This document shows positions 38,090-50,099 of a stretch of 64,000 nucleotides of DNA, piece by piece (positions within the stretch are counted from its first letter, which is position 1; the number at the start of each line of letters is the position of its first letter). The position numbers were made by a program, and so were the translations under genes. This DNA is from an uncultured bacterium (GTDB lineage Bacteria; Desulfobacterota_D; UBA1144; Nemesobacterales; UBA2774). Location: positions 320,001 to 384,000 of the forward strand of contig CAVPJU010000006.1 of the NCBI GenBank assembly GCA_963705505.1, read 5' to 3'. Below the pieces are notes generated by a model. It saw nothing but the letters and a program-made list of their open reading frames with translations. It had not been told where the DNA came from and ran no database searches.

Positions 38090-38671
38090 ATGATAAACAG
38101 ATGCGGGTGGTCCATTTCGGACCCTTTGATGATTGATTATCACGATACTGAGTGGGGCGTCCCGGTTCACGACGACCGCAAGCATTTCGAAATGATTGTC
38201 CTCGACGGAGCGCAGGCGGGGCTCAGCTGGCAGACCGTCCTGAGAAAAAGGGAGTCCTACCGCGAGGCATTCGATAATTTCGATCCGAAGAAAGTAGCAC
38301 GGTATAACGATAAAAAAATCCGGGAGCTTCTGAACAATCCCGGCATAATCAGAAACCGGCTGAAAGTAAACTCCGCAGTAGTGAACGCAAAGGCATTCCT
38401 CGACGTGACGGATGAGTTCGGCTCGTTCGATAAGTATATATGGCAGTTCGTAGGCCACCGTACCATACACAACGAATGGAAGAGCTTGAAAGAACTGCCC
38501 GCGAAGACGTCCGTGTCAGACACCATGAGCAAAGACCTTAAAAAAAGAGGGTTCAACTTCGTCGGCTCCACCATATGCTACGCATACATGCAGGCGGCCG
38601 GCATGGTGAACGATCACACTACAGAATGTTTCAGACATAAAGAGCTGAGACGCATGCCCCCGAATAAATAA
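38090..38671 (+). CDS. tag: DNA-3-methyladenine glycosylase I
   Basis: RCGW, YHDTEWG, QAGLSW.TVL.KR, IIRNRLK, GF.FVGSTICYAYMQAAGMVNDH..C. Confidence 0.95.
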   Translation: MINRCGWSISDPLMIDYHDTEWGVPVHDDRKHFEMIVLDGAQAGLSWQTVLRKRESYREAFDNFDPKKVARYNDKKIRELLNNPGIIRNRLKVNSAVVNAKAFLDVTDEFGSFDKYIWQFVGHRTIHNEWKSLKELPAKTSVSDTMSKDLKKRGFNFVGSTICYAYMQAAGMVNDHTTECFRHKELRRMPPNK

Positions 38672-39267
38672 TGACTCAAAATTTTCTAGACAAGGTGGTA
38701 TTCCGTCCCGCGAGAAAGGACGAATGCAGGACTATCGCGCGGCTCTACAGCATCTCCTCGGACGGATTGGCGGACTACATCTGGACGACGCTCGCGAAGC
38801 CGGGAGAGGATATTCTCGATGTGGGGGCAAGGCGGTACTCGAATGAGGACCTCTTATTCAGCTATAACAATTGCGTGATCGCAGAGCACGATGGTGAGAT
38901 TATAGGTATGCTCGTTGCATTCCCAATGTACGTTCCCGAGGACCCTGGTGCTGTACGTGAGACCGACCCGGTTTTAGTGCCCTTCACTGTACTGGAGAAA
39001 GACAAGAGCTACTACATCATGGGGGTTGCAGTCTTTCCCGAGCATAGAGGGAAAGGGGTTGGCACGAAATTTTTGGAAATTGCGGAACGGAAAGCGGTTG
39101 AAAATAACCTCCCCCAAATAAGCCTGATAGTATTCGATCAGAATGTGGGGGCTAAAAAACTTTACGAGCGTCACGGATTTTATGAAATCATGCGCGAACC
39201 TGTACTCCCGCATGAGCTTATTCACCATACGGGCTACGCGCTGCTTATGGTTAAGGACGTTAAATAA
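38671..39267 (+). CDS. GNAT family N-acetyltransferase
   Basis: VAVFPEHRGKGVGT acetyl-CoA motif; NVGAKKLYERHGF. Confidence 0.9.
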   Translation: MTQNFLDKVVFRPARKDECRTIARLYSISSDGLADYIWTTLAKPGEDILDVGARRYSNEDLLFSYNNCVIAEHDGEIIGMLVAFPMYVPEDPGAVRETDPVLVPFTVLEKDKSYYIMGVAVFPEHRGKGVGTKFLEIAERKAVENNLPQISLIVFDQNVGAKKLYERHGFYEIMREPVLPHELIHHTGYALLMVKDVK

Positions 39268-39331
39268 CCTACCGCGGCGATAAATCAGCGAGCAGAATCT
39301 TCGGCATCCCGAATACGGTCAATAACCGAAC

Positions 39332-40918: not shown

Positions 40919-41277
40919 ACAGTAATCCTCTCCCTTATTACATTTCTCCTATTAAGGAATAAGACCCAATCAAGCATCAAGAATCGTTTTTGGAATTGTT
41001 GAATAATTGACTAAGTATTTTCTCGTGTTAGTAGATGTCATTATTATACCTTAAAAATATAAGTTGCACTATTACCCCGATTTTTTACCCGGCCTTTCCG
41101 ATTTTTTTGCATAATATCATCGACAAGTGACCTCAACAGACTTCGAAGTTTCATGAAGCTATAAACGAGGAAGTAGTACCAGTTAAGATTTTCACCGTTC
41201 GGGCCATCGCTTAATTAAAACCGGGAACATAACACAGTGCGATAGACGACCAGCGTAGTTCATCCAAACTCCCGAAT

Positions 41278-41324
41278 TTGACAGTTCATTCTTACGCACT
41301 TATAATTGAGAATCTTTCTCAATT
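41278..41324 (+). promoter_or_regulatory. Consensus sigma70 promoter overlapped by a Fur/Zur-family operator
   Basis: TTGACA(41278-83)-N17-TATAAT(41301-06); palindrome AATTGAGAA-TCT-TTCTCAATT at 41304-41324. Confidence 0.85.
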
Positions 41325-41354
41325 GCAATATAGCACGGGCAAGGACAATTAATC

Positions 41355-41798
41355 ATGAAAACAAAATCCGGCAGATCAGAAAATTCAGAGAGTTTAAAGG
41401 CTATTTTTCACGCAAAAAGACTCAAATGCACGCCTCAGAGGTTAGCCGTGCTGAAAGTACTCAAGGAAAGCGGGGCTTACCTCTCGATAAATATGCTCGA
41501 CAAGAAGGTGAAGGAGATCCTTCCCGGAACAGGGCTTGCGACTGTGTACAGGGCGCTCGAAACGCTCGAAGAGTTAAACCTGGTAGTCAAGGTGCACCTC
41601 GAGGACGGGTGTCACAGCTACGCGGTCGCGCCCGAGGGGCACCGGCACCCGATAGTCTGCACGGAGTGCAACAAGGTCATCGAATTCGCGGAATGCCCGC
41701 TTGATAAGTTGTCCGAGAAGCTCTCGAAAGACACGGGCATCCTCATACAAAACCATTTCCTCCAGTTATTCGGGAAATGCAGGGAATGCCAGACTTAA
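41355..41798 (+). CDS. Fur-family metalloregulator, probably Zur
   Basis: TPQRLAVL, GLATVYRALETL, GHRHPIVCTECNKVIEF..CP, C-terminal CREC; heads a metal-uptake cluster. Confidence 0.85.
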   Translation: MKTKSGRSENSESLKAIFHAKRLKCTPQRLAVLKVLKESGAYLSINMLDKKVKEILPGTGLATVYRALETLEELNLVVKVHLEDGCHSYAVAPEGHRHPIVCTECNKVIEFAECPLDKLSEKLSKDTGILIQNHFLQLFGKCRECQT

Positions 41799-41813
41799 GA
41801 AGGGGATATATAC

Positions 41814-42525
41814 ATGTCTCATATGCACATACCGGATGGAGTGCTTCCGATGTGGATCGTAACAGCGGGCTGGATAGCGACAGCCCTGGTACTGGCATTC
41901 TGCATCAGGAGGGTGAGCTCGATCGAGCTCAGGCGGAAGATACCGCTAGTCGGCATAATCTCAGCGCTCATGATAGTGGGCATGTCTCTCGAGATCGTAC
42001 CGATCGGATACCACGTAAACCTGAGCGTAATAGCGGGTATCGTTCTCGGCCCGGCCCTGGCTTTTATCTCGGTATTCATAGTGAACCTGATAATCTCGAT
42101 GTTCGGCCACGGGGGCGTTACGGTCGTCGGGCTCAACACCCTGGTCATAGGGGCCGAAGCGGTACTGGGCTATTACTTATTTCAATTATTCAGGTCGGTT
42201 ATAGGGGAAAAACCACTCGGCTGGGAATCCTCGCTCGCCGCCTTCCTGAGTCTTTTATTAAGCACATCCCTGATGCTGGGAATCGTATACCTATCTCATG
42301 TGAGCCCGGCAAAAATCGAGGACATCGGTCATCTGTTATCGGGAACGGGCAATAGCATAAGCGGAAATCAGGTCTGCGGACGACGGAATTAATTTCTCCA
42401 GGTTCGCCAAAACAGTCTTTATATTGGCCCCGCTGGGGTGGGTACTAGAGGCCGCGATAACGGGACTCGTCATCAAGTATGTATCCCGCGTTAGGCCCGA
42501 CCTGGTCGTGCAAGAGCGGGCATAG
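41814..42525 (+). CDS. ECF transporter S component NikM/CbiM (one +1 frameshift near 42370 as assembled)
   Basis: MSHMHIPDG start, GYHVNL, GHGGVTVVGLN; the shifted frame continues ..LGWVLEAAITGLVIKYVSRVRPDLV to TAG 42523-42525. Confidence 0.85.
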
Positions 42526-42535
42526 GAGCGTATTC

Positions 42536-43361
42536 ATGGACGTTTCGGCAATTGATTATTACGCAAACCACGGAGCGAGCTTCCTGCACAAGGCCCGCGC
42601 CGTATCAAAGATTCTGTTTGCGGGGCTCGTTATCGCATCAGTCGTAATCACAAGCGACTTCTATCTCCTGCTCGCGATTTATCTATCACTTTTATCATTA
42701 GTTATATGGACGAGGCTCCCCGTGCTTAAGATAATCACTATTGCAGCATATCCCGCGTTATTCGCGCTGATATTCGCGGCCGCGACCTGGAACGGGAGCT
42801 GGGTACGCGCGGGCGTGATAATTTTGAAAGGCCCTGGACGCGGCGCTGGGAATGGTAATTCTCATAGTTACCACCCCTTATCCGGAGGTATTTTCATGTA
42901 TAAGACCCGTACTGCCGGGGATCATCTCCGAAGGACTTCTGCTCACATACAGGTCGCTTTTCATACTCCTCGAGCTCACCGACAACCTCGTCAGGGGCCT
43001 CAGGGTCAGGGGCGGACTCACACGCGGGAGATATATTAAAAACGTCGTTAATTTCTCCTCGGGAATCGGCCTATTGCTGGTAAGGGGGCTCGACATGTCG
43101 GAAAAGTTCTACGGAGTGCTGAGCGTCAGAGGGTACAGCGGAAAGATATCGGGAAGGGAGAGGGGAGAAAAGACAGGGGTGAACGACTTCACTGCTTTTT
43201 TAATAGGCGTAATAATATTTTCAGCAGCGTTATGGATACGAACCGATAGGGAAACGTCCGAATACGAAAGCTACTTCCTGGCCTTCTCCATAATCGCGCT
43301 TCTTACATCGTCGGCATATTTCTTACTTCCGAAACTCGGGGTGGAAGCTTGGAAGAAATAG
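42536..43361 (+). CDS. ECF transporter T component CbiQ/NikQ (one +1 frameshift near 42828 as assembled)
   Basis: MDVSAID....SFLHKARAVSK start; after the shift ALDAALGMVILIVTTPY..LLTYRSLF..RVRGG..SVRGY. Confidence 0.85.
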
Positions 43362-44206
43362 TAAAGGTCAGAGACGTTAATTTTAAATACCCTGACGGGA
43401 CGGCTCTCAAATTCGACGGGCACGATTTCACCGTCAGGAAAGGGGAGCGCGTCGTAATGCTGGGGCCCAACGGGAGCGGAAAATCCACACTCCTGTCCCT
43501 CCTCCTCGGGCTCCTTAAACCTGTGGACGGCGAGATCGAGGTGCTTGGCGTAAGCCCCTCGAATGATTACGAAAAGATAAGGGAGAAGATCGGGGCGCTG
43601 CTTCAGAACGTAGACCTCCAGATCATAGCGCCCAGGGTGTGGGACGACGTCTCGTTCTCTCCCAGGAATTACGGCTACAAAGAAGAAGAAACCGCGAAGC
43701 TCGTGGACGATATACTGAAAAAGCTCGACATAGAGCATCTTAAGGATAAAGTCCCGCACTATCTGAGCGGAGGAGAAAAAACCAAGGTCGGGCTTGCGGG
43801 AGCGCTCGTAATCAAACCCGAGCTCCTCATACTGGACGAGCCGTTTGAGCACATCGACCCCGCCTGCAGGACGGAGCTGATCAAGTTATTAAATAAGGTG
43901 AATAAAGAAAACGGGACGGCTATAATTTTATCGACTCACAACATGAATACAGTCCCCTTGATCGCGGACACGGTTTACCTGATTGCGGAGGGCGGAAAGA
44001 TCGTGGGGAAAGGGACTCCGAAGGAAATATTTTCTCAGGTCGAGACCCTTTCCAAATGTCATATCGAGCCCCCGGTACTGGGAGAGCTATTCTCTGAGCT
44101 GAAAAAACTCGGGGTCGATATGGACGTCTCGCTTACGGTCGATGAAGCTGCTTGTACAATAGCAAACGCAATGGTATTATCGAAAAATAAAACGGGCCTC
44201 GGATGA
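43349..44206 (+). CDS. ECF transporter ATPase CbiO/NikO
   Basis: GPNGSGKST, LQNVDLQI, LSGGEK, LILDEPF, STH. Confidence 0.9.
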   Translation: MEEIVKVRDVNFKYPDGTALKFDGHDFTVRKGERVVMLGPNGSGKSTLLSLLLGLLKPVDGEIEVLGVSPSNDYEKIREKIGALLQNVDLQIIAPRVWDDVSFSPRNYGYKEEETAKLVDDILKKLDIEHLKDKVPHYLSGGEKTKVGLAGALVIKPELLILDEPFEHIDPACRTELIKLLNKVNKENGTAIILSTHNMNTVPLIADTVYLIAEGGKIVGKGTPKEIFSQVETLSKCHIEPPVLGELFSELKKLGVDMDVSLTVDEAACTIANAMVLSKNKTGLG

Positions 44207-44542
44207 AACCGATAAGAGATATTAACAAAAGCAGGCGTATCGAAATTTCTTATCCCCTTCCTGGGAGTACTCCTCGTTTTCTCGATCAGCTTACATAATC
44301 ACAAGATAAGCCTGAGCCCGGACTCTCACGTAACAATCACTGCCGCGTCGCATACGGCGAGTCATTCCGTGGACGGATGCTCCGCCTGTCTGCTTCACGG
44401 AAATATCAAGCTCACAGTTACGGAAACCGTCTTCAGTCTTATAGACGCCGGGCGATCAATTTCATTCAGCGAGAACGAACATTTAAATCCTTATACGTTT
44501 TTAAAACAAAATATCCCTTCCCGTTCACCTCCGGCGGTCTAA
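44203..44542 (+). CDS. DUF2946-like (CruR/CutF-type) leader protein with CxxC and C-terminal RSPP; apparent +1 frameshift near 44217
   Basis: Open frame 44219-44542: ILTKAGVSKFLIPFLGVLLVFSISLHNHKISLSPDSHVTITAASHTASHSVDGCSACLLHG...NIPSRSPPAV*. ATG 44203 overlaps the cbiO stop (ATGA) but is one base out of frame. Confidence 0.75.
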
Positions 44543-44692
44543 GCCGATAATCGTCATTCCGGCCCCCGGAGCCGCATTTTCAGCACACTAATTTCTTCAA
44601 GCCCCGAGTTATAGTACGCACTCATCAATTGGGACTATATCGCGGCATGTCCGACACATCCCGGATCCAAATCCGTCCGGGACTGACCGTGC

Positions 44693-44757
44693 GTCTCCTC
44701 CGGAAAGGCGATATCGAATCCGCTTCGATCATCTAACTACATTTTCGGAGGTGAGAT
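44693..44757 (+). promoter_or_regulatory. Putative anti-SD stem sequestering the RBS of the outer-membrane protein gene
   Basis: GTCTCCTCCGGAAA (44693-44706) can pair with TTTTCGGAGGTGAGAT (44742-44757) with a 2-nt bulge and G-U pairs. Confidence 0.55.
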
Positions 44758-46143
44758 ATGAATTACGCAAGAATTATTGCGATATTGATAATTTCTTTTA
44801 TTGCTTCCTCCCCGTTTTTATACAACGATGCGTTCGGGCAGGAGAGCGATGACGTTAAGAACGAAATAAAAGAGCTTAAACAGATGATGGAGAAAATGCA
44901 GCAAAGAATCACCGACCTCGAGGAAAAGAACAGGGTCCTCGAGCAGCAGGCGAAAGAGAAAGTGAAAGAGAATGTCGTCGTAAAAGAGGAGACACAAATA
45001 ATTCCGGCAGCGCCTCCGCCCCAGCAGGAGAGCTTTTTAAGCAAAGTGGCTCAAACGCTAAACCCCGATATTAGCGTTATAGGTATTTTTGCTGCGGCTT
45101 GGTACTCCCGGAACGATCCGTACGTTTTTGCCGAGGACGACCCGCAAAATACCGGAGTAAATTTACAGGAGCTGGAATTGGCTTTCCAAAGTATTGTCGA
45201 TCCGTATTTCAGGTTCGACACATTCATCTCATTAAAGCAGGATAGTGTGGAGGTAGAGGAAGCGTACGGGACCTCGCTATTCAGCATGCCTCTGAATACG
45301 CAGTTCAGGATGGGGCGTATGAGGGCGAAATTCGGAAGGATTAACCAGATACATACGCACGCCCAGAACTTCGTCACCCTCCCGCTAGTCGCTGCTGAGT
45401 TCCTGGGCGAGCATCTGAACCCGACGAGCATAGAGACCGATTTCCTCATCCCCGTGCCCTGGTTCATGGAGCTGAGCGCTTTGGGCGGCAGCCCCGATGT
45501 CGAGACCCCGACGTTTGCCACGGATGAGGCTAACGCGAATAACCTGGCCTACCTGCTCTACGTCTTTCACCTCGCTAATTTCTTCGAAGTGAGCGACTCT
45601 CTCGGAGTAAACCTCGGAGCTTCATTCGCCACGGGCAGCAACGGAACGGGCCCTAAGGAACGCTCGAACCTCTACGGAGCCGACCTCTACGCTAAATACA
45701 GACCGCTCAGAAACAGCCCGTATACGGAACTCAAGCTCCAGTCGGAGTTCATGTGGAGGCAGGCGGACACGCCTGAAGAGAAGCTCGAGGACTACGGATT
45801 TTATGCGGAGGGAATCTACAGGTTCGCAAAGAGATGGAACACGGGAATGAGATTCGATCTGACCGATACGAACACCCCCGTCGCAGGCGTCCAAGACGGC
45901 GTTGAACTCGTATCCGCGGACTCTGCTGACCTCGTCAGCAGCAGAGCGATCAATCCGGGAGAGACATTAGGATTACCGGGGAGGGCGTATCGCATATCGC
46001 CCATGCTGACCTTCAGCCCGAGCGAATTCTCACAATTCAGGCTAGAGTACGATTACCTGAACCAGAACTATGCAGGAAACCAGCACGCTATCTTCCTGCA
46101 GTTCCAGTACGCGATAGGGGCTCACGGGGCGCATCCTTATTAA
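44758..46143 (+). CDS. Outer-membrane beta-barrel protein of the 'zinc-regulated OM receptor' type
   Basis: Signal peptide, coiled coil, LNPDISVIG, NLQELELAF...DPYF, EEAY, FGRINQIHTH, FSPSEFSQFRLEY, C-terminal LQFQYAIGAHGAHPY. Confidence 0.8.
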   Translation: MNYARIIAILIISFIASSPFLYNDAFGQESDDVKNEIKELKQMMEKMQQRITDLEEKNRVLEQQAKEKVKENVVVKEETQIIPAAPPPQQESFLSKVAQTLNPDISVIGIFAAAWYSRNDPYVFAEDDPQNTGVNLQELELAFQSIVDPYFRFDTFISLKQDSVEVEEAYGTSLFSMPLNTQFRMGRMRAKFGRINQIHTHAQNFVTLPLVAAEFLGEHLNPTSIETDFLIPVPWFMELSALGGSPDVETPTFATDEANANNLAYLLYVFHLANFFEVSDSLGVNLGASFATGSNGTGPKERSNLYGADLYAKYRPLRNSPYTELKLQSEFMWRQADTPEEKLEDYGFYAEGIYRFAKRWNTGMRFDLTDTNTPVAGVQDGVELVSADSADLVSSRAINPGETLGLPGRAYRISPMLTFSPSEFSQFRLEYDYLNQNYAGNQHAIFLQFQYAIGAHGAHPY

Positions 46144-46169
46144 TCAAATTTGCTCAGGAGGAAATGAAT

Positions 46170-47153
46170 ATGAAACGGTATAACATTCTTCACTGCTTCA
46201 CGGTATTCATTACTTTCGTCCTCATCTCCATTTTCTTCTACACTGGGGATGCATCGGCGAAGGTACATATAGTCGCTTCGCTCCCCGACCTTGGGGCAAT
46301 CGCGCAGGAAATAGGGGGTGACAAGGTCGATGTGGTAACCCTGGCCAAGGGGTACCAGGACCCGCACTTTGTGGACGCAAAGCCCACATACGTGACGAAG
46401 CTTAACAGGGCGGACCTTCTCATCTACAACGGACTCGATCTCGAGATCGGCTGGCTGCCCCCTCTGATCACAGGGTCCAGGAACTCCAAGATCACGTCCA
46501 CGGACGCCCTCGGACGTCTCGACGCTTCCGCCTATATCCCACAGGTGCTTGAAGTACCGACTACGCAGATCGACAGATCGATGGGAGACATACATCCGAA
46601 AGGCAATCCGCATTACCTCCTCGACCCGAGGAACGGTATTCCCATTGCCGCCGGGATAACGGCGAGATTAAAGGAGATCGACCCGGAAAACGCCTCTTAT
46701 TACGAGGAGAATTACAAAAAATTTGCCGATAACCTGAATGCAGAAAATAAAGCAATGGGACGAGGAGCTCGCTCCTTATAAAGGAACGGAGATCGTTTCT
46801 TATCACAAAAACCTCAATATCTTTCGGAGTGGGTCGGATTTAAGGAAGTGGGATTATAGAGCCGAAGCCAGGCATACCTGCCGTCGCCGTCCCACGTCGC
46901 CGACCTGATCAAACAAATGAAAGCGACGGACGTGAAGCTCGTTATTGCTTCAAACTATTATCCCCAAAAAACCGGTTCGCTCATCGCTGATCAGACAGGC
47001 GCTGTGTTCCTATCCATACCCACAAGCGTAGGGGGGCAGGACGGGATTAATACATACTTCGACCTGTTCGATGTGATCGTGGACGATATAACCTCGGCAT
47101 TGAAGAATAAAACGGGATCGACGAATCATTCGGCCTCGAAGGCGGGTGGATAG
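46170..47153 (+). CDS. Zn/Mn ABC transporter substrate-binding protein (ZnuA-like); four indels at ~46743-46880 as assembled
   Basis: QDPHF, NGLDLEIGWL, GDIHPKGNPHYLLDP, DPEN..YY..N; pieces KIKQWDEELAPYKGTEIVSYHK / YLSEWVGF / IEPKPGIP / PSPSHVADLI recovered in alternating frames. Confidence 0.85.
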
Positions 47154-47250
47154 TTACGCGTACCAATGTAGCCCCCTGTGCTATCTCTCCTAACCGAAAT
47201 ACTCAGGGGACTACATGGTTTATTCAATCAGAAGGACGGTCAGAAATCGG

Positions 47251-47988
47251 ATGGCAAACTTAATAAGACTCGAAGACGTGACTCTAGGATATGAGAACAG
47301 AGGAATATTGGGTCCTCTAGACCTTTCGATAGAGAGGGGCCAATTCTGGGGCATATTAGGTCAGAACGGGGGCGGAAAATCCACACTACTCAAAACTCTT
47401 CTGGGCCTGCTTCCGCCCGTTTCGGGAAACATAGAATCGGCAGAAGAAATCGTATTCGGATATGTGCCTCAGCATGAGAAATTCGACCCGATATTCCCTG
47501 TTTCGGCAGAGGAGGTCGTATCCATGGGGAGATACAGCAGGGTCTCCGCGGGAAAAAGGCTCACGAACTCAGATCGCGAAGCGGTAACGCTGTCCCTGGA
47601 AAAAGTCGGAATAAGTCATTTGAAAGACCGCACATTCAGGTCCCTCTCGGGGGGAGAGAAGCAGCGTACTCTCCTCGCCCGCGCCATATCAGGCGAGCCC
47701 GACATACTCGTCCTCGACGAGCCTACCGCGTCTGTCGATCTAAAGGGAGAGGCGCAAATCATGGAGCTCGTGCAAAAGATCAGGTCCGATGACGGGCTGA
47801 CCGTACTGATGGTGAGCCACTTTTTAAACACGGTTACCAATTACGCGGACATGATTATGTTGATCGATAAGGACAGCGGATATTTCAAGGCAGGCGGCAG
47901 AAGCGAAGTACTGACCGATGACAATTTAAGTAAATTCTTCGGACTGAGCGCCGGCTCTCAGCAGATGAAGAGTTTGAGAGAAATCTAG
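47251..47988 (+). CDS. Zn/Mn ABC transporter ATPase (ZnuC-like)
   Basis: GQNGGGKST, GYVPQ, FPVSAEEVVSMGR, LSGGEKQR, LVLDEPT, VSH. Confidence 0.9.
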   Translation: MANLIRLEDVTLGYENRGILGPLDLSIERGQFWGILGQNGGGKSTLLKTLLGLLPPVSGNIESAEEIVFGYVPQHEKFDPIFPVSAEEVVSMGRYSRVSAGKRLTNSDREAVTLSLEKVGISHLKDRTFRSLSGGEKQRTLLARAISGEPDILVLDEPTASVDLKGEAQIMELVQKIRSDDGLTVLMVSHFLNTVTNYADMIMLIDKDSGYFKAGGRSEVLTDDNLSKFFGLSAGSQQMKSLREI

Positions 47989-48010
47989 ATATGGGGACAA
48001 GGCATAATTA

Positions 48011-48864
48011 ATGGGAATATTAAAAGAATTTATAGACAGCTATTTTCTCTGGCGGGACCCGATGATAGTAGGGGCGGTTTCGGGCGCCATATGCGGCTTC
48101 CTTGGCGTGTACGTCGTGCTCAGGAGAATAATCTTCGTAAGCGCAGCGCTTACTCAAATCTCGAGCTTCGGAGTAGCCCTTTCTTTTTACCTCGAGGGGT
48201 ACAGCCTGGGAGCGCTGGCATCTTTGATACATCCCTTCATTCTGTCTATAGCCCTCACTTCGCTCGCTGCCCTCTTTTTCGCTCTCAAAAGAGACTATTC
48301 GCGCATAAGCCGGGAAGGGGTGATAGGTTTCGGGTTTTTAATCGCTTCGGGGGCGGTCGTAATACTCGGGGACAGAATAACCAAAGGCGCTCACGATATA
48401 GCGAATATCCTTTTCGGGAGCGCCGTCGTCGTTGATCCAAAGGACCTGTTAATAATTCCCGCTAGTTGCTCTCGCGGCAGCGATAATCCATGCCATTTAC
48501 TTTAAAGATTTTATATTCGTTTCGTTTCGACGAAGAATCCGCACGGTTATTCAAGTATCCGGTCAGAATGCTCAATACAGTTATGCTTATTACCATAGCC
48601 GTAGTGGCGTCCGTATCGACCAGAGCGCTTGGGGCGCTTCCGGTCTTCGCGTTCCTCGCCCTCCCGCCTCTCACTTCACTATTTCTGACGGAGAAGCTCA
48701 AGCTTGTTTTCGCGCTCTCGGTAATAGTGGGCGTATCGTCGGCAACGCTCGGTTATTTCTTCTCGTTCATACTGTCCATTCCGACAGGGGCTTCCATGGC
48801 GGTCTGCGCTTCGATCTTTTTCATCCTGGGTCTCTTGTGGCGTGAGGTTAGAATCAGGATTTAG
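48011..48864 (+). CDS. Zn/Mn ABC transporter permease (ZnuB-like); two +1 frameshifts near 48461 and 48526 as assembled
   Basis: CGFLGVYVVLRR, ILFGS, then ..IHAIYFKDFIFVSF / DEESAR.., RALGALPVFAFL.LPP, IPTGASM. Confidence 0.85.
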
Positions 48865-48865
48865 A

Positions 48866-49417
48866 ATGAGGATAAGACAAATAATGAACGCATTATTGCA
48901 GACTATGAAATGTCTCCCGCACGCAATGCCGCTGCTGCTTTCAGCGTTCCTTATATTCTCCGCGTGCAGTAAATACGGAAAAGTCGCCGAGACCCTGGAT
49001 TTTTTAAAGTTCGAAAGCTTTAACTGCGACGTGGTCAGAGTCGAAGGAAGCGGCAGTTTTTTTTGCCAGCTCCCGGACATGGACATAGAAACAATCAGGC
49101 TCATCGGAATCAGCATCCCGGCGGAGAGTGAAAACGATGCGAAGAAATATTGCGAATCGGTACTGAGCAGGGGGACGCTCGTAAAAGTAGAGCCCGATAA
49201 GGAGCTGAGGGAAAAAGAGGGAGACATTCCGGCTTACGTATTCGTTCCGGGCGGGAAAATGCTGAATGTTCTCCTTATAGAAAAGGGATATGCAAAACCG
49301 GTTACAAAAGAGCTCAATGAAAAGTATATGAATTTATTTGTCGGAGCCCAGAAAGAAGGAAAAACAGAAAAGAACGAGGCTACAGATGAAGGAGAAAAGC
49401 CGCCCTGGCTCAAGTAA
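48866..49417 (+). CDS. Thermonuclease (SNase)-fold lipoprotein with degenerate catalytic motifs
   Basis: Lipobox FSAC; VVRV..., IRLIGI.IP, AYVF..GG.MLN..LIEKGYA; start uncertain. Confidence 0.7.
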   Translation: MRIRQIMNALLQTMKCLPHAMPLLLSAFLIFSACSKYGKVAETLDFLKFESFNCDVVRVEGSGSFFCQLPDMDIETIRLIGISIPAESENDAKKYCESVLSRGTLVKVEPDKELREKEGDIPAYVFVPGGKMLNVLLIEKGYAKPVTKELNEKYMNLFVGAQKEGKTEKNEATDEGEKPPWLK

Positions 49418-49427
49418 TGAAACGGAC

Positions 49428-50099
49428 ATGCCGATATTAGAAATTACGGATCTCAAAAAAAGTTATATCTCTCCGGAAGGAGAGAGCTTATTAGTGATAG
49501 ACGTACCTCATTTCTCACTGGAAAAAGGGGAACATGCAGCCCTCATGGGAGACAGCGGTTCGGGCAAGACCACTCTTCTAAACCTTATAGCAGGAATACT
49601 GAGACCCGACAGCGGGATAATACTCCTTGCGGAGAAGGATATGTCGACTCTTTCCGAATCAGGAAGGGACAGGCTGAGGGCCGAGAACATAGGGTACATA
49701 TTTCAAACCTTTAACCTGCTTCAGGGCTATTCGGCGCTTGAGAACGTAATGCTCGGGATGATGTTCGGCAGCGGAGAGGATAAGAGTTTGGCGCATTCAC
49801 TCCTTCAAAGAGTCGGCCTCGGTGACCGGATCAATTACATGCCCGGTCAACTATCCGTCGGGCAGCAGCAGCGGGTCGCCGTAGCGAGAGCGCTGGCAAA
49901 CCGTCCCAGACTGGTCCTCGCCGACGAGCCTACGGGGAACCTCGACTTCCGGAATTCGGGCGAAGCCGTAAACCTGATCCGCGGGATATGCGGCGAGAAC
50001 GACGCCGCGCTCCTGCTCGTTAGCCACGATCAGAACGTGCTCGATAAATTCGAGCGAGTGGAGAAATTGAGTGAAATAAATCGTGCGCTGAATTATTGA
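49428..50099 (+). CDS. ABC transporter ATPase (LolD/ZrgB-like)
   Basis: GDSGSGKTT, IGYIFQTFNL, LSVGQQQRVAVARALAN, LADEPTGNLD. Confidence 0.9.
   Translation: MPILEITDLKKSYISPEGESLLVIDVPHFSLEKGEHAALMGDSGSGKTTLLNLIAGILRPDSGIILLAEKDMSTLSESGRDRLRAENIGYIFQTFNLLQGYSALENVMLGMMFGSGEDKSLAHSLLQRVGLGDRINYMPGQLSVGQQQRVAVARALANRPRLVLADEPTGNLDFRNSGEAVNLIRGICGENDAALLLVSHDQNVLDKFERVEKLSEINRALNY

Follow-up and report, generated by a model that had tools for sequence, protein, structure and literature searches.

A conserved leader open reading frame with a CxxC and R-S-P-P layout, upstream of a porin-like barrel and a ZnuABC-type importer, is probably a metal switch

The closest described counterparts of the element reported here are CruR and CutF, two leader peptides that respond to copper. 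CruR (Bp2923) of Bordetella pertussis, the prototype of the DUF2946 family (PF11162), is encoded ahead of a 162-nt intergenic region, and in the definition of Roy et al. a CruR/DUF2946 protein has an export signal, a CXXC motif and a RAPP motif located three residues from the end, with 45 residues, conserved within 1-2, between CXXC and RAPP; an N-terminal export signal or an Nin-Cout transmembrane (TM) segment is present in >95% of the family (PMC9426467). In vitro, CruR arrests the ribosome, and toeprinting located its two Pro codons at the P site and the A site (PMC12992588). CutF of Rhodobacter capsulatus, for its part, is a co-translationally exported protein with a CxxxC motif and a poly-proline tail, which controls a copper-detoxifying oxidase and whose stall is induced by copper (PMC9973294, bioRxiv 10.1101/2025.02.05.636593). 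The present study concerns a small leader open reading frame (ORF) at 44203..44542 on the + strand of a 64-kb stretch of DNA from an uncultured bacterium (contig CAVPJU010000006.1, positions 320,001 to 384,000; the whole stretch is called the window, and all coordinates refer to it), which directly precedes genes for an outer-membrane barrel and a ZnuABC-type metal importer. Judged from its sequence, this leader is probably a metal switch. The explanation that we favour, with moderate confidence, is that it represents a CruR/CutF-type regulatory leader, i.e., a nascent metal-binding peptide whose arrest at R-S-P-P would control the barrel-znuACB unit. What the analysis shows directly is conservation, architecture, synteny and complementarity, whereas the RNA switch, the arrest itself, its polarity and the metal involved, all considered below, are inferred.

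In terms of architecture, the leader and CruR, as the latter is described in the sources cited, both possess an export signal, contain CxxC and carry R-A/S-P-P at 2-3 residues from the C terminus; between CxxC and the arrest motif there are 44 residues in the window's family and 45 in CruR. In addition, each is encoded in a metal-import operon and immediately precedes the gene for an outer-membrane uptake protein, from which a long intergenic region separates it, and the polarity expected for the leader would also be that of CruR, with the importer shut off by metal. Unlike CruR, the window's family possesses an additional, invariant HxH motif and is undetected by the PF11162 profile; its downstream genes encode a porin-like barrel and a ZnuABC-type importer instead of a TonB-dependent transporter; its metal is probably zinc rather than copper; its arrest codons are complementary to the downstream Shine-Dalgarno (SD) sequence, whereas CruR acts through Rho; and its members are labelled Candidatus Dadabacteria in their records, whereas CruR belongs to the Proteobacteria. 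With CutF, according to the accounts cited above, the leader has in common co-translational export (predicted in its case), a Cys motif and a C-terminal proline motif, and for both it may be proposed that stalling unmasks an SD of the next gene that is hidden in RNA structure. The window's family would regulate importers, in contrast to CutF and its oxidase, and the stall codons themselves would mask the SD, being brought near it by a long-range helix.

A more distant likeness is to ApdA, ApdP, SecM and the RQH family, which also exhibit a C-terminal R-x-P-P, an N-terminal localisation signal and a position upstream of the regulated gene, and, like the window's family, the RAPP-like peptides are described as being without sequence similarity outside the motif (PMC10987492, PMC12992588). 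However, these proteins monitor Sec or YidC and, as described there, are without conserved metal ligands, which the window's family does have. The likeness to the RQH family (Fujiwara et al. 2024) is one of kind only and not of group membership, since the gene downstream of the leader is neither sec nor yidC. Fujiwara et al. favour a repeated independent origin of RAPP-type peptides (PMC10987492). The RAPP/RGPP upstream ORFs catalogued to date adjoin genes for TonB receptors, YcnI, PCuAC and PepSY proteins (PMC12992588), and CutF-like proteins encoded beside HupE/UreJ genes have suggested a role for Ni/Co (PMC9973294).

The leader is a real, conserved gene. A six-frame search of 41 related genomes, including the window's own, matched the leader ORF in 29 genomes and in 23 of the 24 that constitute the window's family, the window's genome carrying a single copy. 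At a larger scale, a hidden Markov model search of 1.84 billion cluster representatives returned 30 clusters of the leader family, and an alignment-based word search of 5.8 billion proteins returned 45 leader clusters, all annotated as 'hypothetical'; none of the proteins reached by the leader-family alignment searches (45 and 19) carries a Pfam domain. The relatives are labelled either Candidatus Dadabacteria or Thermodesulfobacteriota. One 130-residue entry of the representative library, P0065, fuses the N terminus of a luciferase-like monooxygenase with the 40 C-terminal residues of the leader family (...SRSPPAI) and is probably a chimera of gene calling or assembly. In the other loci first examined, the leader opens with an in-frame ATG in 19 of 19 cases, comprises 109-120 codons and overlaps or abuts with its ATG the stop codon of the upstream ATPase gene (ATGA or TAATG).

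The gene order small ORF - barrel - znuA - znuC - znuB was encountered in 29 of the 29 loci examined (20 in a first set and 13 larger loci, four of which derive from genomes already counted). An earlier note on this DNA had suggested that signal-CxxC-RxPP ORFs be sought upstream of barrel orthologues, and in every one of these loci the leader indeed directly precedes the barrel gene. The genes on the other side of the leader are variable: in the window's family they are those for a Fur-family regulator, cbiM, cbiQ and an ATPase, while different genes are present in G040, G036, G030 and G038. For example, the leader in locus L027 (G040) has immediately upstream of it a TTGACT-17-TATAAT promoter and, after this, a half-palindrome similar to the window's operator (see below), so it heads the unit there. 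The constant partner of the leader is the barrel/znuACB unit, as expected of a leader. The spacer between leader and barrel gene measures 61-215 nt across loci and 215 nt in the window (44543-44757), the length that the earlier note had given. In two loci (L006 and L020, from G002 and G004), the usual stop two codons past PP is lost and the ORF runs 10-13 codons into the 5' arm of the RNA helix P1 described below; RSPP and the downstream RNA stay in register despite this loss.

Within the leader peptide, the motifs and their spacing are fixed while the remainder drifts. Eighty-eight of 89 distinct members contain CxxC followed by RxPP, with HxH ahead of CxxC in all 88, and the arrest-type motif is RSPP in 68 and RAPP in 20 of these. 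Between CxxC and RxPP there are 44 residues in 76 members, 43 in six, 42 in five and 46 in one, and PP is followed by two residues in 74 members and by three to thirteen in the other 14. In an alignment of 32 diverse members, no residues other than M1, H31, H33, C59, C62, R107, P109 and P110 are invariant; identity among orthologues amounts to 33-66% and falls to as little as 20% to the first sequence among the 32. All aligned members have a basic N-region, which leads into a conserved hydrophobic stretch. These data bear out the signal-CxxC-RxPP layout with an RSPP variant that the earlier note had described, one fifth or so of the family (20 of 88) carrying RAPP itself, while of the extra His ligands that it had also proposed, the HxH pair is invariant and the other His residues of the stretch are not. 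RSPP has been reported as an arrest-permissive variant in ApdA and ApdP, was recovered from random screens and is depleted in proteomes (PMC12992588), and it was among the motifs with which RAPP-like upstream ORFs were searched for (PMC10987492).

The same conserved His2Cys2 ligands and export signal, together with the strict co-occurrence with the barrel, would also suit a stable small membrane-anchored or periplasmic metal-binding protein, acting as a chaperone or accessory of the barrel or of ZnuA, in which RSPP would be a structural or interaction motif. We consider this very unlikely. The sequence drifts outside the seven motif residues, yet the motif spacing and the distance to the stop codon are fixed, and AlphaFold2, run with the 32-sequence alignment, returned a model of low confidence (mean pLDDT 59, pTM 0.27) in which only the TM helix at residues 12-30 is confident (pLDDT 84-91). 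Furthermore, the nucleotide complementarity to the SD exceeds that of synonymous recodings, as detailed below, and CruR and CutF are described as unstable or undetectable as proteins.

In the window, the leader corresponds to ~112 codons once an extra base near 44234-44236 is discounted. Its frame is open over 108 codons, from 44216 to 44539, ends at a TAA stop codon (44540-44542) and translates as EILTKAGVSKFLIPFLGVLLVFSISLHNHKISLSPDSHVTITAASHTASHSVDGCSACLLHGN...IPSRSPPAV; along the peptide are found, in this order, the hydrophobic segment FLIPFLGVLLVFSISL (~44246-44293), HNH (44294-44302), several more His residues, CSAC (44378-44389) and the C-terminal PSRSPPAV, in which RSPP is specified by 44522-44533. 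The ~110-residue ORF that the earlier note had spotted although the ORF track lacked it is therefore present, and it is conserved in relatives. Its ATG, at 44203, had been thought to be one base out of frame, and this holds for the assembly: the ATG, which overlaps the TGA stop codon of the upstream ABC ATPase gene (ATGA), sits in the neighbouring frame, which reads MKPIRDINKSRR... and stops after 31 codons, and the leader frame contains no ATG, GTG or TTG ahead of a GTG at 44369. Alignment of the start region with five relatives indicates that the window has one extra base at ~44234-44236, rather than in the 44203-44220 segment where a recount had been advised, and a metagenome contig ~93% identical to the window likewise has one letter fewer, at 44234. 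The contigs of four public runs (Logan) include no same-strain contig across 44228-44309 that could distinguish an assembly error from a genuine extra base, and no RNA run was listed for this stretch. Reading an AAAA run as a single step would also yield a plausible protein and was rejected, as the alignments put the extra base at 44234-44236, outside the A run. The window's copy of the leader is not translatable as assembled.

At the RNA level, the Ser-Pro-Pro codons TCA CCT CCG of the predicted arrest site (TCACCTCCG, UCACCUCCG; 44525-44533, + strand) are the exact 9-nt reverse complement of 44746-44754, i.e., of the ribosome-binding site CGGAGGTGA (SD CGGAGGUGA) of the barrel gene, the ATG of which is at 44758-44760 on the same strand. 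This feature had been missed by the earlier note, whose caveat that the stall site and the masking sequence lie ~150 nt apart, so that a relay would be required, is largely removed because the RSPP codons themselves complement the SD. In predicted folds of RNAs that begin upstream of RSPP and end at the barrel start, the SD core pairs with the RSPP codons with a probability of at least 0.6 in 16 of 20 loci and of at least 0.57 in seven of nine further loci, i.e., in 23 of 29 in all. Across the 20 loci, 90.5% of the cells of the 10-bp helix are paired, against 39-54% with the partner slid, and in 15 of them the observed duplex is stronger than 95% of synonymous recodings drawn per locus from its own codon usage. 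The first Pro codon is CCT in 17 of 20 and seven of nine loci (24 of 29), a codon that accounts for only 5-19% of Pro codons in most flanking genes. Lineages with spacers of 61-87 nt retain the complementarity.

The effect of a ribosome on this helix was expressed as the energy required to open the region from -16 to +4 of the barrel start, which was used in place of the SD unpaired probability. Over the 29 loci the mean opening cost is 12.9 kcal/mol in free RNA, 9.8 kcal/mol with a 28-nt footprint at the arrest site and 9.6 kcal/mol with a ribosome at the stop codon, while a control footprint placed 30 nt upstream leaves it at 12.9 kcal/mol. The arrest-site footprint lowers the cost by at least 3 kcal/mol in 15 of 29 loci, the control footprint in none of 29. 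In these models the barrel site is unmasked while a ribosome stands on the last codons of the leader, a state that an arrest would prolong; the predicted effect is partial, and absent in a quarter of loci.

The spacer itself is predicted to form a helix, P1, between a 5' arm at 44550-44562 (ATCGTCATTCCGG), with weaker pairs from 44541 onwards, and a 3' arm at 44700-44712 (both + strand). Across loci, the 30 nt past the stop codon pair strongly with sequence just upstream of the SD, significantly so relative to shuffles in 13 of 20 loci (mean z -1.87), and two of the seven misses are loci with a moved stop codon; the arms vary in sequence from genus to genus. Of the P1 cells in the genus alignment, 89.4% are paired, compared to 28-50% when slid, three pairs have changed on both sides and none of 500 shuffles reaches the covariation score, although these figures were obtained with a structure derived from one of the aligned sequences and are biased in favour of P1 to that extent. 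A hairpin, ATCGAA-tccgc-TTCGAT (44713-44729, + strand), is conserved within the genus, and the SD could also pair with its 3' arm, as a third option. Rfam searches identified no family in the spacer and only two matches in 41000-49500, both elsewhere and sub-threshold. RNAalifold, applied to nine genus-level spacers, gave an uninformative consensus (-13.3 kcal/mol, with a covariation term of -0.18).

P1 competes with the pairing that the earlier note had placed at the centre of its proposal, in which a spacer anti-SD, GTCTCCTCCGGAAA (44693-44706, + strand), masks the barrel SD and a structural relay conveys the effect of the stalled ribosome to it. The complementarity on which it was based is present: TCTCCTCCGGAAA (44694-44706) is 85% complementary over 13 nt to TTTTCGGAGGTGA (44742-44754), and only 2.5% of dinucleotide shuffles beat the energy of this duplex in the window. 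Across loci, the upstream sequence that pairs best with the SD outperforms shuffles (fraction <=0.04) in seven of 20 cases, and in 14 of 20 it is situated between -59 and -70 relative to the start codon; on the nine-sequence genus alignment, 81.5% of its cells are paired, compared to 25-64% when slid. Against this, 13 of 20 loci show no significant partner, the covariation is weak, being reached by 52-55 of 500 shuffles, and in full-length folds the SD prefers the RSPP codons. The anti-SD also overlaps the 3' arm of P1 (44700-44706), and the two are therefore mutually exclusive in the window, P1 being the better supported. We regard this version of the switch as unlikely, and the anti-SD could serve as a back-up lock once P1 opens.

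The spacer also bears on a transcriptional alternative, namely CruR-type attenuation, in which the arrested ribosome blocks loading of Rho on the spacer and its release leads to termination before the barrel gene, the SD pairing being secondary or incidental. Such a mechanism has been demonstrated for CruR, the only characterised importer-linked member, with its 162-nt intergenic region (PMC9426467). The spacers analysed here, at 61-215 nt, contain more C than G in 19 of 20 cases, and in or near the window's spacer there is no + strand site resembling an intrinsic terminator and only a promoter-like match of 9/12. The C-richness is modest, however (C/G 0.93-1.48); the heavily structured spacers (predicted minimum free energy of -60 to -75 kcal/mol per ~220 nt in most loci) disfavour loading; and the lineages with 61-87-nt spacers keep the codon:SD complementarity. 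As the main mode of control, Rho attenuation appears rather unlikely, and it could also operate alongside arrest-dependent control of translation.

According to the explanation that we favour, the leader would encode a membrane-targeted nascent peptide that binds metal via HxH and CxxC, a His2Cys2 site suggested by the four invariant ligands, and that arrests its own ribosome at R-S-P-P, thereby controlling barrel-znuACB. As long as the final stretch of the ORF is free of ribosomes, its Ser-Pro-Pro codons would pair with the barrel SD and the spacer would fold as a closed domain held by P1, hiding the ribosome-binding site. Once a ribosome has arrested with one Pro codon in its P site and the other in its A site, it would cover the masking sequence up to the stop codon without disturbing the P1 core, and opening the barrel ribosome-binding site would cost less for as long as the arrest lasts. 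A bacterial ribosome protects ~15 nt downstream of the first base in its P site. With the first Pro codon (44528) in the P site, an arrested ribosome should thus reach the stop codon and leave the P1 core free, and a footprint ending at the stop codon would explain the fixed arrangement of PP, two codons and stop, followed by P1. The polarity may be as in CruR, to judge from the importer context and the CruR precedent: the metal-free peptide would be arrested and the genes on, while binding of metal, most likely Zn at the His2Cys2 site, would release the arrest and turn the genes off. In its complete form, as a self-contained zinc switch in which the arrest codons double as the anti-SD, the arrested ribosome uncovers the porin/ZnuABC site, Zn at His2Cys2 in the translocating nascent chain ends the arrest and the RNA re-closes, this scheme is put forward tentatively, as a possibility and not as the expected outcome.

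A number of results weigh against the favoured explanation. The PF11162 profile matched neither the window protein (E<=1) nor 20 orthologues (E<=10) nor 24 distant members (E<=1), and the DUF2946 profile search that the earlier note had advised gave no match for any of these 45 proteins. Six-frame searches of 41 and 120 genomes with the same profile returned nothing at the leader locus and nothing above the cut-off. In a protein atlas, one cluster, at rank 16, has PF11162 in 12% of its members, which is a lead only. The nearest approach was a borderline DUF2946 protein in locus L034 of G030 (1399-1809 as matched, 1399-1812 as a gene, - strand), which scores 21.2 bits on DUF2946 at a cut-off of 23.7; its 137 residues include a signal peptide, a His-rich stretch and CFSCCCC and end in VRSPPAVC, and its gene lies just downstream of a TonB-like gene. 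This protein is a candidate for a second RSPP-type leader in the same order, apparently unrelated in sequence to the window's family: hhalign aligned only the last 17 residues of the two, with a probability of 5%, and a search started from the L034 protein returned itself alone. The leader has the architecture by which DUF2946 proteins are recognised, i.e., an export signal or TM segment, CxxC, R-[S/A]-P-P near the C terminus, the spacing between these and metal-homeostasis genes downstream. It accordingly resembles CruR and CutF in layout and not in sequence profile, and we suggest that it works as they do, whether or not it is homologous to them.

The codon:SD helix has its own difficulties. 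It is unpredicted in six of 29 loci, and its covariation does not rise above that of shuffles (reached by 120 of 500 and 64 of 500), because both sides are conserved; each partner is constrained for another reason, the codons by the peptide motif and the SD by 16S complementarity. Extension of the helix into its flanks is marginal relative to permuted pairs (fractions 0.0485 and 0.0375). A nearby K-P proline is likewise encoded by CCT in eight of 16 cases, and a rare-codon effect could explain the CCT preference instead. Masking of the arrest site raises the mean unpaired probability of the SD from 0.04 to 0.14 only, the SD remaining mostly paired; the drop in opening cost is 0.5 kcal/mol or less in seven of 29 loci, ~10 kcal/mol of opening cost remains with the arrest-site footprint, and a ribosome at the stop codon unmasks as much as an arrested one. 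Finally, zinc is the likeliest metal, on the basis of an importer whose family fits and does not fix the metal. The assignment is deduced rather than direct because the regulator reaches no NCBIfam Zur cut-off and the importer is only of 'ZnuA/ABC-3 type'. The Zur/Znu operon of the earlier note is therefore retained as a Fur-family regulator with a ZnuA/ABC-3-type importer, the name Zur being unsupported by the profile score (43 bits against a cut-off of 167).

The remaining features of the locus are as follows, those from the promoter to znuB being on the + strand. A sigma-70-type promoter, TTGACA-17-TATAAT (12/12), at 41278-41306 is overlapped by a perfect 9-3-9 palindrome, AATTGAGAA tct TTCTCAATT (AATTGAGAAtctTTCTCAATT; 41304-41324), located just upstream of the regulator gene and likely to be the operator of the Fur-family regulator. 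The regulator gene itself ('Zur' of the earlier note; 41355..41798) encodes a Pfam FUR domain (E 3e-28), and among the NCBIfam models its G007 orthologue scores 91 bits on PerR (cut-off 180), 90 on Fur (220) and 43 on Zur (167). It is followed by cbiM, cbiQ and the ATPase gene (41814..44206; Pfam CbiM, CbiQ and ABC_tran), which represent an energy-coupling factor-type metal importer. Downstream of the leader, the barrel gene (44758..46143) specifies 461 residues with a signal peptide and an N-terminal coiled-coil-like segment; the protein has weak, sub-threshold Pfam matches only (BBP2 and Porin_O_P), no NCBIfam match and no sequence relative in the PDB. Relative to G007, the barrel gene shows in-frame indels of 3 nt and 12 nt. 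The znuA, znuC and znuB genes (46164..48864) encode the ABC importer, identified through the intact orthologues of G007 (Pfam ZnuA, E 3e-51; ABC-3, E 2e-39); the best NCBIfam matches are AztC, AztA and AztB, all below cut-off, with Mn-type models next. A staphylococcal-nuclease-like gene (48842-49417) overlaps the end of znuB, and in nine of the 13 larger loci such a gene is found after znuB.

The extra base in the leader is not the only lesion in this operon. Compared to G007, the closest contiguous relative, the window displays frame breaks or internal stops in cbiM, cbiQ, the leader, znuA and znuB, with nine single-base indels in coding sequence at 42376, 42829, 44236, 46742, 46818, 46855, 46879, 48465 and 48524. 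One of these falls in cbiM (~42376), one in cbiQ (~42829), one in the leader, four in znuA and two in znuB, and none is inside a long homopolymer. Among ~47 other syntenic genes of the window only one is affected, by an internal stop (38671-39270). This pattern reflects either an error of the consensus, confined to a strain-variable locus, or inactivation of the operon as a whole in the very recent past. At the protein level, the unbroken pieces of znuB retain 97-98% identity to G007, which speaks against long neutral decay and in favour of a local problem with the consensus where strains vary.

A literature search found nothing linking nascent-chain translation arrest with zinc uptake. Zinc and ZnuA are unmentioned in the available text of PMC9973294 and PMC12992588, the supplementary family lists of the CruR/CutF papers being a place where ZnuA-adjacent members may be held, and 'zinc' does not occur in the available text of bioRxiv 10.1101/2025.02.05.636593. 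Publications naming both 'RAPP' and 'ZnuA' appeared, among the matches listed, to be unrelated as judged by their titles and the beginnings of their abstracts.

To our knowledge, metal sensing by a nascent peptide has so far been documented for copper only, in CruR and CutF, and zinc uptake is thought to be under transcriptional control by Zur. With a conserved arrest-type leader ahead of its porin and ZnuABC-type importer genes, zinc-type uptake would gain a second layer of control, exerted after transcription, and the device would be shown to exist in an uncultured phylum, beyond the reach of the DUF2946 profile. The exact complementarity between the stall codons and the SD constitutes a simple and directly testable design, in which synonymous recoding separates the role of the peptide from that of the RNA. 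If the zinc switch were true, it would combine the polarity of CruR with a CutF-like unmasking of the SD, and the metal-sensing arrest leaders would include a zinc-type branch that escapes current family profiles.

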